From the IMG/VR virus record IMGVR_UViG_3300015214_000024, positions 169,787 to 233,786 of that record: a stretch of 64,000 nucleotides of DNA. One strand, given 5' to 3'. The notes under the pieces are model-generated. The model worked only from the letters and a program-made list of their open reading frames with translations. It did no database searches and was not told the DNA's origin. This DNA is from a virus. Its lineage: Duplodnaviria; Heunggongvirae; Uroviricota; Caudoviricetes. The translations under genes were made by a program, and so were the position numbers. Below are positions 6,453 to 54,221 of the stretch, piece by piece. Positions within the stretch are counted from its first letter, which is position 1. Every line of letters begins with the position of its first letter.

Positions 6453-7159
6453 TGAGAAGGAAAAAGGGCGGGATGCTCAAAAATTGGTATATTCAGAAAG
6501 TTAAAAAGCCCGGCGCTGAAACATTGGATGGCTGGGAGAATTGGACTGAAAAAACCAAAAATGAGCATCCTGCCCTTTATTTTCTGTTTGAAACGTTACC
6601 GAGATTTTTTTCAGTAAAAAAACGCCGAATTTGGGATTTGAAATACCACCTCAAACAAAAATATTTTCACGGATATCACAATTTACGCCTTGATGTAAAA
6701 CGGTTTAAAGCACCGTATAACAAAGAAAGATTGCACAAATATTCGTGGATGGATGCAGATAGTCAAATGGAATTGTTTATGTTCCAAATCTTAGTCAACT
6801 TTATTGAAAAAGAAGTTGGATATAATCAATTTGTCGAAATTGCATATGATGACGAAAAAAACAATACTTCTGATCGATACAAAGAATTACTTGAGCTGTA
6901 TCATTGGTTTATTGACGACTATTGCGATCAATCATTTTCAGATTTGCTACACAAAGAATTGTACGATCAATTTCCAGATTTCAAATCATTACGGAAAACA
7001 TCGCTTTTTTCAAAACCAAAAACCCAGCGTGAACGTGACTATCATCAGGCAAATGCAATAATGATGTCTAAAATATCAGATCGTGATGAAATTCTTGAAG
7101 AACAAATGGGAAACAATTTAATTAAATTGATTAAATTGCGTGGCTGTATGTGGACATAA
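6452..7159 (+). CDS. Hypothetical protein
   Basis: 235-aa ORF coupled to the Ro60 stop. Confidence 0.7.
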   Translation: MRRKKGGMLKNWYIQKVKKPGAETLDGWENWTEKTKNEHPALYFLFETLPRFFSVKKRRIWDLKYHLKQKYFHGYHNLRLDVKRFKAPYNKERLHKYSWMDADSQMELFMFQILVNFIEKEVGYNQFVEIAYDDEKNNTSDRYKELLELYHWFIDDYCDQSFSDLLHKELYDQFPDFKSLRKTSLFSKPKTQRERDYHQANAIMMSKISDRDEILEEQMGNNLIKLIKLRGCMWT

Positions 7160-7953: not shown

Positions 7954-8652
7954 ATGACTAATTTTGCATTTGATGTTGATGGTACTTTAACTGACAGCCG
8001 CCGGATAATTGATCCAGCATTCAAAGAATTCTTTTTAAATTTCACTAAAGAGAATACCGTATATCTAGTAACTGGTAGTGATTATCCAAAAACACTTGAA
8101 CAAGTTGGTGACGAAATACTTAATAGTGTTGAAGCTGTTTTTTGCTGTTGCGGTAATGCAGAATATCGAAAAGGCCAACTAATATCGCAAAGCGATTTTA
8201 AAGTCAATGACCAACTTCGATCGTTCTTCCTTGAAATGATGAACGAGAGCCAATTTTATCCCAAAACTGGAAACCATATTGAAGAACGAATCGGTATGGT
8301 TAATTTCAGTATTGTGGGTCGTAATGCAACTTTAGAGGACCGACAGGATTATATCATTTGGGATAAAATGACTTATGAGCGGGAAATAATTAAAAGCTGC
8401 ATTGAAGATCGGTTTGATGAACTTGAAGTTACCCTGGGTGGCGAAACTGGACTTGATATCTACCCAAAAGGAAAAGACAAGTCACAAGTTGCAGATTTGA
8501 TCAGTCCATTCATATTTTTCGGTGACCGTATTGAAGAAGGCGGTAATGATTTGACAATTGCCCAAAAAGCTACTATACACTATAATGTAAGCGGGTGGAA
8601 AGACACTTATTCTATTTTGAAAGAAAAATATACCAATGGCAAGTGTGAGTAA
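7954..8652 (+). CDS. HAD-family phosphomannomutase (eukaryote-type PMM)
   Basis: FDVDGTLT, HIEERIGMVNFS, FFGD..GGND. Confidence 0.85.
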   Translation: MTNFAFDVDGTLTDSRRIIDPAFKEFFLNFTKENTVYLVTGSDYPKTLEQVGDEILNSVEAVFCCCGNAEYRKGQLISQSDFKVNDQLRSFFLEMMNESQFYPKTGNHIEERIGMVNFSIVGRNATLEDRQDYIIWDKMTYEREIIKSCIEDRFDELEVTLGGETGLDIYPKGKDKSQVADLISPFIFFGDRIEEGGNDLTIAQKATIHYNVSGWKDTYSILKEKYTNGKCE

Positions 8653-8965
8653 AAAATTTAAAGTCAGTGGTGGAAGATACACTGGACAGGTTCATCCAGG
8701 TACTAATTCACCAGTGGTTGAATGGTTTGCGACTAATTTAGAAATGCCATCTAAGAGAGCAGCCATAAAGTGGATGAATGATAAACGCAAAGCGTATCAA
8801 GCCAGCGGTATAATGACGACTTTTTCGTATCACGAATCAATATCAAAATCATATGATATTGTAGAAGACGAAAAAGGTAAAATTAAATTATGGTGTTTCG
8901 GCCGCGGATAATATTATATCTAGCCACATTATAAATATTTGAGTATCATTTAAAGGAGTGAAAAG

Positions 8966-13382: not shown

Positions 13383-13476
13383 TATGAGTCAAAACTACTA
13401 AAGACGAATGGTAGAGTCAGCCCGCTCTTATACGGGATAATAGCTGGTTCGATTCCAGTTAGTAGTTTTGGCCATA
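13383..13476 (+). ncRNA. tRNA-like RNA with extended acceptor stem, no CCA
   Basis: D, anticodon and T arms closed by a ~17-bp stem. Confidence 0.6.
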
Positions 13477-13623: not shown

Positions 13624-13713
13624 AGCCAGGCGGCGGGAGTAGAACAGTGGTACTTCACCTCCATCCCAGGAGGAGATTGTAGGTTCGATTCCTACCTTGC
13701 CGCCCGTCCTGGC
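13624..13713 (+). ncRNA. tRNA-like RNA (Gly-like) with extended terminal stem
   Basis: CCUCC/GGAGG arm, GUAGGUUCGAUUCCUAC T-arm. Confidence 0.5.
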
Positions 13714-21567: not shown

Positions 21568-21689
21568 AGAGTTTAGTTTAGAGTGTGGTGAAATGGTAAA
21601 CACGGGCGGCTAATAACCGCCCCCCACAGAGGAAACGAGCATTTAAATGAACGTTGCTGGTTCGAGTCCAGCCACTCAAAACTAAACTT
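21568..21689 (+). ncRNA. tRNA-like RNA, AAU anticodon, extended acceptor stem
   Basis: GGCGG-CUAAUAA-CCGCC; ~16-bp terminal stem; no CCA. Confidence 0.6.
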
Positions 21690-22243: not shown

Positions 22244-22325
22244 GGGGCTGTGGCTAATGCGAATGGTACAGCTAATAGTTTTAGAAACTATGCTTTTGAG
22301 AGTTCGAGTCTCTCCAGCCCTACCA
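22244..22325 (+). tRNA. tRNA-Leu(UAG), short V-arm
   Basis: AUAGU-UUUAGAA-ACUAU, CCA. Confidence 0.8.
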
Positions 22326-22623: not shown

Positions 22624-22699
22624 GCGGTTGTGGGCAAAAGGTAAAGTCGGCAAACTTAAAATTTGTGTCATATTGTGGGTTCGAGTCCCACCTACCGCA
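22624..22699 (+). tRNA. tRNA-Leu(UAA), short V-arm
   Basis: GCAAA-CUUAAAA-UUUGU. Confidence 0.8.
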
Positions 22700-22952
22700 C
22701 AAAAAGATGAAAAAGGCGTTGACAACGTTTTAACATCAAGTTAATATGCGAAACAAGAAACGTACTTAACAGTAAGTTTTTCGTTTAGTGGTATTTCTTT
22801 AATAGCCCTAATAGGCTGGGATTACGGAACGCTATGTTGAAGGACATAACTCGGAAATCCCCGTGTGAGGCGGTCATCCAAAGTGGTAGTCGAATTATGG
22901 TTGGAAGAAACGGAATGTAAGGACCACCGAAATGGTGCAAGGCCATTATAAC

Positions 22953-26325: not shown

Positions 26326-27591
26326 ATGGCGATGTATGATCAGTATGTATGCGTAATGTTCCCGTATCCTAGTGGCGCTGGCCTGCATTTGGGTCATTAT
26401 TACAACTATGCTGTAATTGACTCATATGCTAGGTGGCAGCGTTTTAAAGGTCAGACGGTTTTTCAACCTTTTGGTTATGATGCTTTTGGCTTGCCTGCAG
26501 AAAACTATGCTCGCCAAATTGGCGGTGATCCTAGAACAATAACTAATCAAAATATTCAAAATTTCCGTAAACAAATGCGAAATATGAATACTTTGTATGA
26601 CGAACAGTTGGTTACTTGTGAAACTGATTACGTTAAGTGGACCCAATGGATCTTTAATGCTTTGAAAGATCGTGGATTAGCATACAAAGCTTGGGGTGAA
26701 GTAAATTGGTGTGAACAGTGCGGGACCGTGTTGGCTAATGAACAAGCGCAAAATGGCATTTGTGAACGCCACGGAACTCCTGTTGAAAAACGTCAAATGA
26801 ATCAGTGGTATTTCAAGATTACTGATTATACTGATCGATTGATTAAGAATTTGGACTGGATTGATTATCCGGAAGGGACTAAGAAGCAACAGCGCAAATG
26901 GTTGGAGGATCAGCAAGATTGGTGTGTCAGTCGTCAGCGTTCTTGGGGCTGTCCTATACCAATTGAAGGTGAAACTGACACCTTGGACACTTTTGTTGAC
27001 TCTTCATTTTATTTCTTGCGCTATTTGACTAAAAGTGAAGATGAGTTTTTGCCAGCTGATCAATACAAGCAAGTCGATCTGTATGTTGGTGGCCCAGAAC
27101 ACGCTTGTATGCATTTGATATATGCTCGTTTTATTCATATGGTTTTGTTTGATATGGGAATTGTTCCTGAAGAAGAGCCATTTAAGAAAGTTATTCATCA
27201 GGGTATGATTACCAAGGATGGGAACAAGATGAGCAAAAGTAAAGGTAATGCCGTTAGTCCTGATGACTATGATCCTGACGAATTGAGAATGTATTTGATG
27301 TTCTTGGGGCCATATTTTGAAGGTGGGGATTGGAGTGACCAGCATATTGTTGGTGTTCGCCGCTTCTTCAATAGGATGAAAACTTGGTTGGGAGAAGCTG
27401 GCACTGAAAATATTGACACTTCTCAGTTGGAAAATCAAATTGATCATTATGTTTCTACTTTCAAATTTAATAAAGTAGTTTCAAGTTTTATGGAATTTAT
27501 GAACAAAAATAAATCCAAAAAAGTTGATAATGAAACTCGAAATAAAATTGTCAGAATGTTGACTAATTTTGCCCCAGGGTTTCGAATTTAA
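26326..27591 (+). CDS. leuS: Minimal leucyl-tRNA synthetase (no CP1 editing or C-terminal domain)
   Basis: MFPYPSG.GLHLGH, DAFGLPAEN, DWCVSRQR.WG, DTFVDSS, KMSKSKGN; only 421 aa. Confidence 0.93.
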   Translation: MAMYDQYVCVMFPYPSGAGLHLGHYYNYAVIDSYARWQRFKGQTVFQPFGYDAFGLPAENYARQIGGDPRTITNQNIQNFRKQMRNMNTLYDEQLVTCETDYVKWTQWIFNALKDRGLAYKAWGEVNWCEQCGTVLANEQAQNGICERHGTPVEKRQMNQWYFKITDYTDRLIKNLDWIDYPEGTKKQQRKWLEDQQDWCVSRQRSWGCPIPIEGETDTLDTFVDSSFYFLRYLTKSEDEFLPADQYKQVDLYVGGPEHACMHLIYARFIHMVLFDMGIVPEEEPFKKVIHQGMITKDGNKMSKSKGNAVSPDDYDPDELRMYLMFLGPYFEGGDWSDQHIVGVRRFFNRMKTWLGEAGTENIDTSQLENQIDHYVSTFKFNKVVSSFMEFMNKNKSKKVDNETRNKIVRMLTNFAPGFRI

Positions 27592-27770: not shown

Positions 27771-28724
27771 TATGCCCACTTGGCGGAATTTGAATATGAT
27801 AAACCTTGAAAATATTGTTGAATCTCTCAAAAGGCAATATCCTGAATATGATTATGAGATATTGAATAATAAGATTGGAATCTGGGATCCTCCTGGAAAC
27901 CATTATAAAGGAAGATACCATATACAAATTGCAGAATGTGAAATAACTGAAGACAAAAATTATGATCATAATTTTTGGATAGATTTTTTAGAAAAATGTA
28001 TCTTTATTCATAGAATGAATAAGTATAATTTTTAATTAAAATTTGCGTCAACTATAAATAAAGCTAAAAGGTAACTTTATGCTTTGTGATTATGGTTGCG
28101 AACAGGAATCAAATTTTGTTCTTAAAAATGGTAAAAATTGTTGCGCAAAGAGTCAAAATTCATGTCCTGCAATAAGGGCTAAGACTGGGGCAACTGTTAA
28201 GCATCAATTTAAATCTGGCAGTAGAAAACGTCAACCATATGTTTATGCTGATTTGCCTGATGAAACAAAAGAGAGAATGAAATGGAACAAAGGAAAAGAA
28301 ATTGTTCCAAACGAAATTGTGTTTGCTGAAAATAGCAAATATGATAATGATGTGGTTAAAAAAAGAATTTTACAAAACAATCTTTTAGATTATAAATGTG
28401 CCGAATGTGAGTTGACAGAATGGCAAGGCAAAAGTATAGTGTTGGAGTTAGAACACTGCAACGGCGTTCGAAACGATCATAGGATTGAAAACTTAAAGTT
28501 TTTGTGTCCAAATTGCCACTCACAAACGGAAACGTTTAGAGGAAGAAACAAAAACACTGGAAAAGTTATTGTTACTGATGAAGAGTTGTTGACAGCGTTA
28601 AAGTCGACTGCTAATATAAGACAAGCTTTACAGAGTGTAGGACTTGCTGCTAAAGGCGGAAATTATGCTCGAGTTAAAGCTTTAAAATTAAAGTTTAATG
28701 TTTAATATGCCCACTTGGCGGAAT
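27771..28724 (+). mobile_element. HNH-carrying insertion bounded by a 19-bp direct repeat of the tRNA-Leu 5' end
   Basis: TATGCCCACTTGGCGGAAT at 27771 and 28706. Confidence 0.65.
28079..28705 (+). CDS. HNH endonuclease
   Basis: CAEC..LELEHCNG..D.R.ENL.FLCPNCH. Confidence 0.88.
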   Translation: MLCDYGCEQESNFVLKNGKNCCAKSQNSCPAIRAKTGATVKHQFKSGSRKRQPYVYADLPDETKERMKWNKGKEIVPNEIVFAENSKYDNDVVKKRILQNNLLDYKCAECELTEWQGKSIVLELEHCNGVRNDHRIENLKFLCPNCHSQTETFRGRNKNTGKVIVTDEELLTALKSTANIRQALQSVGLAAKGGNYARVKALKLKFNV

Positions 28725-28864
28725 GGTAGACGCCAGGGACTTGTCGGAAAGAAACCTTAGGGTTTAGAACGCCACTTAGTATGGCGACGGTGCGAATCCG
28801 GAATCCGAAAGCTAAAATCCCTTGCCCTTTGGGCGTACCGGTTCGAGTCCGGTAGTGGGTACCA
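28709..28864 (+). tRNA. tRNA-Leu(UAA) with a 71-nt structured insert in the anticodon
   Basis: AGGGA-CUU^AAAA-UCCCU restored if 28743-28813 is removed. Confidence 0.8.
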
Positions 28865-29805: not shown

Positions 29806-30384
29806 ATGAAGAATAATTGGAAAGAAATTCAGGAATATTACGACAAAGGTTTTAGTATTCGAGAATTGGTTGCACATTTTAAAATTTCGACTAAGTCAAT
29901 ACATCTCGCTAAAAAGCGTGGCGAGTTTGTGACCAGATCAAAATCAGAGAGTGCTTTATTAGTAAAGAAAAAATTTGGCCAGAAGGTATTGTCAAAATCC
30001 CATAAAGATAATATATCTAATGGTATGAGGGCGGCCCATAAAAATGGTAATGCTTGGAATATTGGCCAAAGTAGATGGAATAATGAACCAAGTTGGCCAG
30101 AACAATTTTTTATGAATGTGGTCGCAAATGAATTTGACGACAAGAATTATGAATATGAAAAACCATTTCATAAATTTAGTTTAGATTTTGTTTGGGAGCA
30201 TAAAAAGAAAGTAATAGAAATTGATGGTGAACAGCACGATCGCTGCTTTGAGCAACGTAGACGTGATGAGGAAAAAGATTCGTTACTCCATCAATATGGA
30301 TATGAAATTTTACGTATCAGGTGGAAAGATATGTTTAATGATCCAAAAGTTTATATTAAACTTGCAAAAGATTTTATAAACTAA
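29806..30384 (+). CDS. DUF559/Vsr-like endonuclease
   Basis: LDF..VIEIDGEQH..D..D..L...GY.ILR. Confidence 0.82.
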   Translation: MKNNWKEIQEYYDKGFSIRELVAHFKISTKSIHLAKKRGEFVTRSKSESALLVKKKFGQKVLSKSHKDNISNGMRAAHKNGNAWNIGQSRWNNEPSWPEQFFMNVVANEFDDKNYEYEKPFHKFSLDFVWEHKKKVIEIDGEQHDRCFEQRRRDEEKDSLLHQYGYEILRIRWKDMFNDPKVYIKLAKDFIN

Positions 30385-42639: not shown

Positions 42640-42727
42640 GGACACGTTGAGCAGTAGGTTGGCTCACCTGACTCTTAATCAGACGCGCGAAAGCGCCTTG
42701 TGGGTTCGAACCCCACCGTGTCCTCCA
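42640..42727 (+). tRNA. tRNA-Lys(CUU) with long V-arm
   Basis: Loop CUCUUAA; GCGC-GAAA-GCGC extra arm. Confidence 0.8.
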
Positions 42728-43059: not shown

Positions 43060-43142
43060 CGGTATGCGATGGCTGATTGGAGAAGCCTATGACCTGCGCG
43101 GTTATGATAGTGCGCACCTTGGGTTCGATTCCCACATACCGT
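43060..43142 (+). ncRNA. Aberrant tRNA-like RNA
   Basis: CGGUAUG/CAUACCG acceptor, D and T arms; ambiguous anticodon. Confidence 0.5.
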
Positions 43143-43152
43143 CCTAATTTGT

Positions 43153-54118: not shown

Positions 54119-54202
54119 TCTCCCTACTACTGGTAGGTCTAGTAACGTGACTTTGAATCACGGGTGCGCGGACGCGCAAAGGTTCGAATCCTTGAGGGAG
54201 AT
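54119..54202 (+). tRNA. tRNA-Gln(UUG) with long V-arm
   Basis: CGUGA-CUUUGAA-UCACG plus extra arm. Confidence 0.75.
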
Positions 54203-54221
54203 CAAATTTGAGGTATTGATA

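Follow-up and report, generated by a model that had tools for sequence, protein, structure and literature searches.

How might a phage tRNA-Leu(UAA) gene whose anticodon is split by a 71-nt insert yield a tRNA, and what kind of element is the insert? The gene occupies positions 28709–28864 of a 64,000-nt stretch (the window, bases 169787–233786) of a 455,147-bp IMG/VR virus record (IMGVR_UViG_3300015214_000024; 39% GC, CheckV completeness 100%). In the textbook account, bacteria and phages have only self-splicing (group I and group II) tRNA introns, and tRNA splicing that depends on proteins is a feature of archaea and eukaryotes. A very large array of tRNA genes, entirely on the + strand, lies in the window, with 56 ARAGORN calls and 59 Rfam tRNA matches; neither default ARAGORN nor the Rfam tRNA model called anything at 28709–28864. 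With introns allowed, ARAGORN recognized a canonical tRNA-Leu(taa) there, with 71 nt (28743–28813) inserted between nt 34 and 35 (U34/A35), in agreement with a first-pass annotation made from the sequence alone. Exon 1 (28709–28742, + strand) comprises the acceptor 5' strand, the D arm, the anticodon-stem 5' strand AGGGA and loop nucleotides C32, U33 and U34; exon 2 (28814–28864, + strand) supplies A35–A38 of the loop, the anticodon-stem 3' strand UCCCU, a long variable arm, the T arm, the acceptor 3' strand, A73 and an encoded CCA. The boundary of the insert can slide by 1 nt owing to a shared T. When the insert was deleted in silico, default ARAGORN called a normal tRNA-Leu(taa), 85 nt long when mature. 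The insert is present in a single copy, and neither repeats nor source copies of it were found elsewhere in the 455-kb genome, which contains another gene called as tRNA-Leu(taa) at 22624–22700.

The insert gave the same minimum free energy structure whether it was folded alone or within the whole precursor, and this structure is the cloverleaf that the first-pass annotation had drawn, in which UCGGA/UCCGA closes three hairpins. Taking the folds, the structural parse and the model alignment described below together, the elements follow one another on the + strand as helix P1, 5' strand (G + UCGGA, 28743–28748, the first 'pair' being G.A); junction J1/2 (AAG, 28749–28751); hairpin P2 (AAACC-UUAG-GGUUU, 28752–28765); J2/3 ((U)AGAA, 28766–28769); hairpin P3 (CGCCA-CUUAGUA-UGGCG, 28770–28786); hairpin P4 (CGG-UGCGAAU-CCG, 28788–28800), with a T-loop-like loop of 7 nt; J4/1 (GAA, 28801–28803); P1, 3' strand (UCCGA + A, 28804–28809); and a single-stranded tail of 4 nt (AGCU, 28810–28813). 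The predicted 5' splice site lies directly before 28743 and the predicted 3' splice site after 28813. The energy of the fold was not beyond chance (z = -1.13 and -1.50, with 28/200 and 16/200 shuffles folding as well). We take the fold as more than chance because a covariance model built from relatives alone finds the insert and because compensatory changes keep all four helices.

Those relatives are homologous inserts of 62–73 nt in other tRNA-Leu genes, which together with the window insert make up five distinct sequences (window; L043 and L047, from uncultured phages; L053, a metagenome variant; and Cr30). Searching viral contigs for genes that resemble tRNA-Leu but have an anticodon loop longer by 45–75 bases retrieved L043, whose insert of 63 nt has the exact 22-mer GCGACGGTGCGAATCCGGAATC in common with that of the window and whose orthologous exons are 89% identical to the window exons over both exons. 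Scanning viral contigs for this shared core recovered a 62-nt version in four contigs (L047–L050), and a scan of metagenomes with a 17-mer core added a further identical copy (L091), one that is cut (L056) and a variant shared by L053, L124 and L140. A wider tRNA-Leu pattern retrieved a 73-nt insert in a tRNA-Leu(CAA) gene (L276), which BLAST assigned to Cr30, a phage of Caulobacter that is in culture (NC_025422, 155,997 bp). The interrupted gene of Cr30 is unannotated and lies between gp168 and gp169; the only annotated tRNA of this phage is a tRNA-Arg(UCU), to which the tRNA-Leu(CAA) would add a second. The carriers are very different phages, one with a genome of 455 kb and one a T4-like phage of 156 kb. 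A second copy of a hairpin, CCGGUGCGAAUCCGG, was seen in L043 at 6610–6654, about 2.5 kb upstream of its interrupted tRNA and outside any called tRNA.

Beyond these members the searches returned nothing that we regard as homologous. The 17-mer core had 111 metagenome matches, of which all but L053, L056, L091, L124 and L140 were without tRNA-Leu context and chance-like; in 185,579 GTDB species genomes it had 66 matches, many apparently coding, none in a tRNA-Leu and likewise chance-like, so that no bacterial genome carries the intron at the stringency of this core. Exact-junction and loop-anchored patterns had no matches in viral contigs, a relaxed structural pattern gave chance matches only beyond the known members, and BLAST of the window insert against 50,697 phage records found chance 19-mers only, and the Cr30 member matched Cr30 alone. 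Relatives hold intron-less tRNA-Leu orthologues: the closest related huge phages, found through a neighbouring gene resembling leucyl-tRNA synthetase (LeuRS), have an uninterrupted tRNA-Leu(UAA), the gene being intact in the closest of them (607 kb), and no interrupted tRNA-Leu was found near the LeuRS-like gene at 18 related loci. An uninterrupted tRNA-Leu(UAA) was also observed in the Rhizobium phages RHph_TM30 and RHph_TM40 (L283 and L284), in which the exon-2 region is 88–100% identical to that of the window and the gene stands directly downstream of a TROVE (Ro60-like) gene.

A covariance model of the intron (R1) was built from L043, L047 and L053 only, leaving out the window and Cr30. 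R1 matched the window insert (28743–28813) over the full length of the model with 39.7 bits (E = 7.6e-7) and the Cr30 insert with 35.8 bits (E = 7.8e-6). As MAFFT misaligned the five introns, an alignment fitted to the model was used instead, and in these five sequences 95.7% of pair cells were standard-paired and 11 of the 14 pairs had changed on both sides. None of 500 shuffles reached the observed values, and sliding the partners lowered pairing to 26–50%. Compensatory changes are present in all four helices. Five of the six pairs of P1 covary, the first being C-G in two members and G.A in three; all three modelled pairs of P2 show double changes; and the stem of P4, identical in four members, is GAG-UGCAAAU-CUC in Cr30, where it covaries. 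P1, J1/2, P4, J4/1 and the tail are constant in length across the five members, P2 (3–7 bp) and P3 (3–5 bp) vary, P2 also in its loop, and P3 keeps the position of its stem while the sequence and size of its loop change. The junctions are more uniform in sequence, with AAG invariant in J1/2, UAGAN in J2/3 of the relatives and RAA in J4/1 (AAA in Cr30), and P4 consists of 3 bp and a UGCRAAU loop, so that the T-loop-like third hairpin of the first-pass annotation is a conserved feature. Element by element, the window insert agrees with the family consensus (a six-pair P1, AAG, P2, UAGAN, P3, P4, RAA, P1' and a 4-nt tail). The window insert is, as judged from these comparisons, a member of a small conserved family of tRNA-shaped introns in the anticodon loops of phage tRNA-Leu genes. 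The second hairpin had also been described as carrying a UAG anticodon-like loop of tRNA-Leu; the relatives have UUUAAU, GAAGA, UAAGA or UUAAUU in its place, which makes the likeness incidental, and the proposal that the insert acts as a decoy loses its basis because the UAG loop is not conserved.

The members differ in where they interrupt the tRNA: between nt 32 and 33 in L047, L053 and Cr30, 34 and 35 in the window, and 35 and 36 in L043. A single rule nonetheless fits all five. Cutting directly 5' of P1 and 4 nt 3' of P1 leaves a perfect 7-nt leucine anticodon loop, assembled as C + UUAAAA in L047 and L053, C + UCAAAA in Cr30, CUU + AAAA (CUUAAAA) in the window and CUUA + AAA in L043, and excision in silico by this rule produced a normal tRNA-Leu by default ARAGORN in every member. 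Counted from the anticodon stem to the five Watson–Crick pairs of P1, the two flanks add up to 13 nt in every case (4+9, 5+8, 2+11 and 2+11). The window and L043 illustrate this well, since their exons are nearly identical while the insert is offset by one base and the opposite side is offset by one base in compensation. Because a single rule restores the loop despite the differing insertion points, the structure of the intron, not of the tRNA, appears to set the splice sites, which argues strongly that the insert is removed precisely. The acceptor stems of L047 and L053 are entirely different and yet fully compensated, and the exons are, on this comparative sequence evidence, under selection as tRNA. 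We infer that the insert is spliced. A CUU:AAG helix between exon and intron, which can be drawn in the window and in L043, was rejected, as it is not conserved in L047 or Cr30. Unrelated inserts of 45–75 nt were also seen in or beside the anticodon loop of other phage tRNA-Leu-like genes (the groups L264/L266/L279, L265/L272, L271/L274/L277 and L263/L281), several of them on contigs of at least 400 kb, and a CGGAC direct repeat lies on either side of the L265 insert; none of these four groups fits a rule of one cut before a stem and another 4 nt after it.

The two predicted cuts fall where a tRNA would be trimmed. Since cuts at 0 and 4 nt from the stem match the 5' end and the NCCA 3' end of a tRNA, the excised RNA would carry tRNA-like ends. 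Below its own members, the next-best matches of R1 were real tRNAs, 9 of 15 sub-threshold ones being matched end to end, with the acceptor stem aligned to P1, the T arm to P4 and ACCA to the 4-nt tail; the best cross-match was a tRNA-Met (26.5 bits). When three junction layers are counted, the modelled P1–P4 axis would comprise 12 layers, as does the stack of acceptor and T arm in tRNA. An unrelated intron of 53 nt occupies the same site in the tRNA-Leu(UAA) of a 112-kb phage (L045:187–239). It combines a 7-bp stem with a 5-bp hairpin that abuts it and, like all five members of the family, has a 4-nt tail, here GCCA, and its cut sites are again 0 and 4 nt from the stem. About 600 nt downstream of this intron we noted a GOLLD RNA (L045:848–1038; 61.5 bits), truncated where the locus ends.

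These observations are consistent with a scheme, to which we give about an even chance, in which tRNA end-processing nucleases would excise the intron and a phage ligase of the Rnl1 type would seal the exons. Host RNase P would cut at the 5' border, directly before P1, and the second cut, just past the 4-nt tail, would be made by a tRNA 3'-end endonuclease (RNase Z/BN-like or RNase E-like); the two exons, held together by pairing within the tRNA body, would then present a 3'-OH and a 5'-phosphate, which a T4 Rnl1-type ligase of the phage could join to give a normal tRNA-Leu(UAA). The 455-kb genome encodes neither RtcB (PF01139) nor an EndA-type endonuclease (PF01974), in searches whose controls worked, and has a T4 Rnl1-family ligase (PF09511) and three other genes of the RNA_ligase family. 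The first-pass annotation had proposed a search for RtcB or an RNA ligase as a check; RtcB is lacking, and the ligases fit its option of a protein-spliced intron. Rnl1 is present in all three near-complete intron-bearing genomes (the window phage, Cr30 and the L045 phage).

A number of observations weigh against this scheme. The insert itself is not called as a tRNA, either by the Rfam model RF00005 at E up to 10 or by ARAGORN, and its linkers are 3, 4–5, 0–1 and 3 nt long where those of a tRNA are 2, 1, 4–5 and 0. The phrase 'tRNA inside a tRNA' in the first-pass annotation is fair for the shape, as the cross-matches of R1 indicate. The 3' nuclease is the weakest step of the proposed route because the tails of the family (AGCU, AGAA, CCUA and AAAA) are not CCA; on a substrate that lacks CCA, classical RNase Z would cut 1 nt past the stem, not 4. 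Rnl1 failed as a marker of intron carriers, being present in two of three intron-less relatives and missing from two huge phages with other short tRNA-Leu inserts. The covariation was counted on an alignment of only five distinct sequences that had been fitted to the structure of the model. Finally, the conserved purines of the junctions have no obvious use in recognition by RNase P and could instead form a catalytic core or a protein-binding site.

The first of these alternatives, that the insert is a new and very small self-cleaving or self-splicing ribozyme with the junction purines and the T-loop as its core and with exons joined by the RNA or by a ligase, seems unlikely to us. Its invariant nucleotides are confined to the junctions (AAG, UAGA, A and RAA) and the P4 loop while the stems covary, as in small ribozymes; the structure of the intron sets the splice sites whatever the position in the tRNA; and no conserved neighbouring protein gene travels with it. 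However, three members scanned against Rfam at E up to 10 matched no ribozyme, group I or group II family, and the regions of the window, L282 and L047 had no match to hammerhead, hairpin, twister, twister-sister, pistol, hatchet or HDV-like ribozymes at the same threshold. We know of no self-splicing RNA under about 200 nt, and two precise cuts and a ligation by 62 nt would be unprecedented, whereas the geometry of the ends mimics that of tRNA ends, as does the GCCA tail of the L045 intron, and points to existing enzymes. The more specific notion that the 62–73-nt four-way junction is a new autocatalytic class, the smallest self-excising intron and possibly able to rejoin its exons itself, is if anything a little more doubtful. 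A candidate c-di-AMP riboswitch (RF00379) was rejected as chance, since it scored 19.3 bits against a cut-off of 38, borrowed the D arm of the tRNA and was not reproduced in L047 or Cr30.

Alternatively, the nucleotides conserved in the junctions and the loop could be a binding site for a dedicated phage protein, either a putative novel endonuclease or the adjacent HNH protein acting as maturase or nuclease, which would recognize the four-way junction and excise the intron before a ligase seals the exons. The HNH endonuclease gene (28079–28705, + strand; Pfam HNH at E = 0.002, below the cut-off) stops 3 nt short of the tRNA and is 47% identical over 79 aa, including the motif CPNCH, to an HNH protein encoded upstream of the interrupted tRNA of L047, so that genes of one family abut the interrupted tRNA in two of five lineages. 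In L047 the HNH frame (8249–8782) has no stop before the tRNA and continues through exon 1 into the intron, with a TGA just before P4. On the other side, the interrupted tRNA is not preceded by an HNH gene in L043, L053 or Cr30, the homologues of L030, L031 and L033 lie 3 nt upstream of an uninterrupted tRNA-Leu(UAA), no other gene was linked to the intron across the five genomic contexts, and the very different carrier phages favour universal host enzymes. We consider a dedicated protein improbable; the HNH protein may have a part in spreading the tRNA–intron cassette. Because HNH homologues adjoin uninterrupted tRNA-Leu genes, the insert is not required for life beside the endonuclease, and its absence upstream in three of the five members further removes protection from the adjacent HNH, another suggestion of the first-pass annotation, as a general explanation.

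We likewise assign a small probability to the view that no working tRNA is ever produced by splicing out the insert, and that the product is a small functional RNA presented on the stable tRNA body, or a mini-tRNA-like RNA and two halves with a role of their own, for example a chargeable, non-decoding tRNA-Leu. Bacterial LeuRS ignores the anticodon, so charging could take place even without splicing; the nearby upstream region has a LeuRS-like gene; and the structure of the insert is conserved independently of exon sequence. This view leaves unexplained the constant 7 + 6 nt sum of the flanks and the rejoining to C32-U33-anticodon-A37-A38 despite the differing partition of the loop, and Cr30, a low-GC phage in a high-GC host, plausibly needs a decoding tRNA-Leu(CAA). 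Least tenable, and highly improbable in our estimation, is a dead insertion, whether a pseudogene or a disruption kept for destroying a homing endonuclease target such as that of the adjacent HNH: the second tRNA-Leu(taa) call at 22624–22700 might make the interrupted copy dispensable, the HNH gene does adjoin it, and cyanophage psbA offers a case of free-standing endonucleases protected by a neighbouring intron, but this reading is largely refuted by the covariation in four helices, the excision rule and the compensated exons argue against a pseudogene, the exons are intact and co-vary in five lineages with a constant flank sum, the HNH coexists with uninterrupted tRNA-Leu genes and the intron occurs without the HNH.

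Among known introns, the closest in position are the group I introns of cyanobacterial and plastid tRNA-Leu(UAA), which share with the window both the gene and the U34/A35 insertion point; group I introns also occur in other bacterial and phage tRNAs, and some have homing endonuclease genes nearby. Those introns are about 200 nt long or more and adopt a P1–P9 fold, whereas the family described here is a cloverleaf of 62–73 nt. The first-pass annotation was right to judge 71 nt too short for such a ribozyme: at E up to 10, Rfam's Intron_gpI, which models the conserved P3–P9 catalytic core, matched neither the window insert nor the relatives scanned, and the omega-G of group I introns is not present, the last base being U in the window intron (C after a 1-nt slide) and A in those of its relatives. 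The position of the group I lineage is found in the window, and homologous introns lie at 32/33 and 35/36. Archaeal and eukaryal tRNA introns are spliced by an EndA/Sen endonuclease and an RtcB or Trl1 ligase and are defined by a 3-4-3 bulge-helix-bulge, in contrast to the flanks of 4+9, 5+8 or 2+11 nt around a 5–6-bp stem in our family; the window fold, in which a 3-bp CUU/AAG helix separates bulges of 1 and 6 nt, does not form this motif. To our knowledge, bacterial hosts lack EndA. The predicted 3'-OH and 5'-phosphate ends would suit Rnl1 and not RtcB.

Nearer in mechanism to the proposed scheme are tRNA-like modules cut by RNase P and RNase Z, such as mascRNA of MALAT1, the 'tRNA punctuation' of mitochondrial transcripts and the stable RNAs of the T4 tRNA cluster. 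In these, as proposed for the family, a tRNA-shaped module directs end-maturation enzymes to both of its borders; they serve, however, to part transcripts from one another, with no re-ligation, whereas the module here sits inside an anticodon loop and its flanks need rejoining. The sealing step has a counterpart in T4, in which PrrC nicks the anticodon loop of tRNA-Lys, Pnkp heals the ends and Rnl1 seals them. Rnl1-family sealing of a break in the anticodon loop is also what we propose for the family, and the window phage, Cr30 and the L045 phage encode Rnl1; the T4 system, though, answers an attack by the host on an intact tRNA, while the break in the family would be a programmed step of maturation.

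Also close to ours are the introns of the Lak megaphages, which, as far as published descriptions allow a comparison, are likewise short, lie in the anticodon loop of phage tRNAs and are tRNA-like. In full-text literature searches, the one description of such introns was that of Devoto et al. (2019; PMC6784885), whose passages on them speak of 'enigmatic' tRNA introns, one of which 'itself may encode a tRNA'. The same passages report highly conserved intron sequences, give no mechanism and place the introns in Thr, Tyr and other tRNAs of Prevotella phages, whereas the window family is in tRNA-Leu; nor do they offer a family model, an excision rule or a cultured system, where the window family has a consensus and the cultured phage Cr30 (Devoto et al., 2019). 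The kind was thus already known but unexplained, and we regard the tRNA-Leu family as a variant of it and not as categorically new.

If the proposed scheme is right, the family, along with the other phage inserts of tRNA shape, suggests a third route for tRNA introns in bacteria and phages, that of an intron disguised as a tRNA, cut by the universal enzymes of tRNA trimming and followed by repair of the anticodon loop by a phage RNA ligase. Such a route would give Rnl1-type ligases a programmed role beyond the repair of damage, and would explain phage tRNA genes missed by annotation pipelines, for example the unannotated gene of Cr30. As a member of the family occurs in phiCr30, which is in routine use for transduction in Caulobacter, these proposals are open to bench testing.

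Other features surround the interrupted gene. Just upstream of the HNH gene is a 421-aa open reading frame (ORF) for a class I synthetase (26326–27591; Pfam tRNA-synt_1 and tRNA-synt_1g), the LeuRS-like gene referred to above, which has about half the usual length of LeuRS, a length kept in 18 related phage contigs. Downstream, an ORF for a DUF559/Vsr-like endonuclease (29806–30384) lies between tRNA genes, so that the block of Leu, Asn and Pro tRNAs has two free-standing nucleases.

Several other tRNAs of this genome are unusual. The remaining ARAGORN intron calls (Arg i48, Ala i13, Leu i7 and Glu i31) looked weak and fall outside the tRNA-Leu intron family. One of them, outside the window at G000:C1:12839–12959, is called in intron mode as tRNA-Arg(gcg) interrupted by 48 nt at 32/33; its acceptor and T arms are perfect, its anticodon stem is weak and its position 37 is U, and we regard it as doubtful. 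Long variable arms are normally confined to Leu, Ser and Tyr tRNAs; in the window, long stem-forming ones were seen in tRNA-Lys(CUU) (42640–42727), tRNA-Arg(GCG) (43060–43144), tRNA-Gln(UUG) (54119–54203) and tRNA-Ile(AAU) (22244–22325), all 82–88 nt long. A 102-nt Rfam tRNA match at 21579–21680 (44.5 bits), uncalled by ARAGORN, has the loop CUAAUAA on a 6-bp anticodon stem, and its variable region spans about 34 nt. ARAGORN also called tRNAs with anticodons of four bases (ctta, 13393–13468) and two bases (cc, 13631–13705), which may be frameshift-suppressor-like tRNAs with odd loop sizes.

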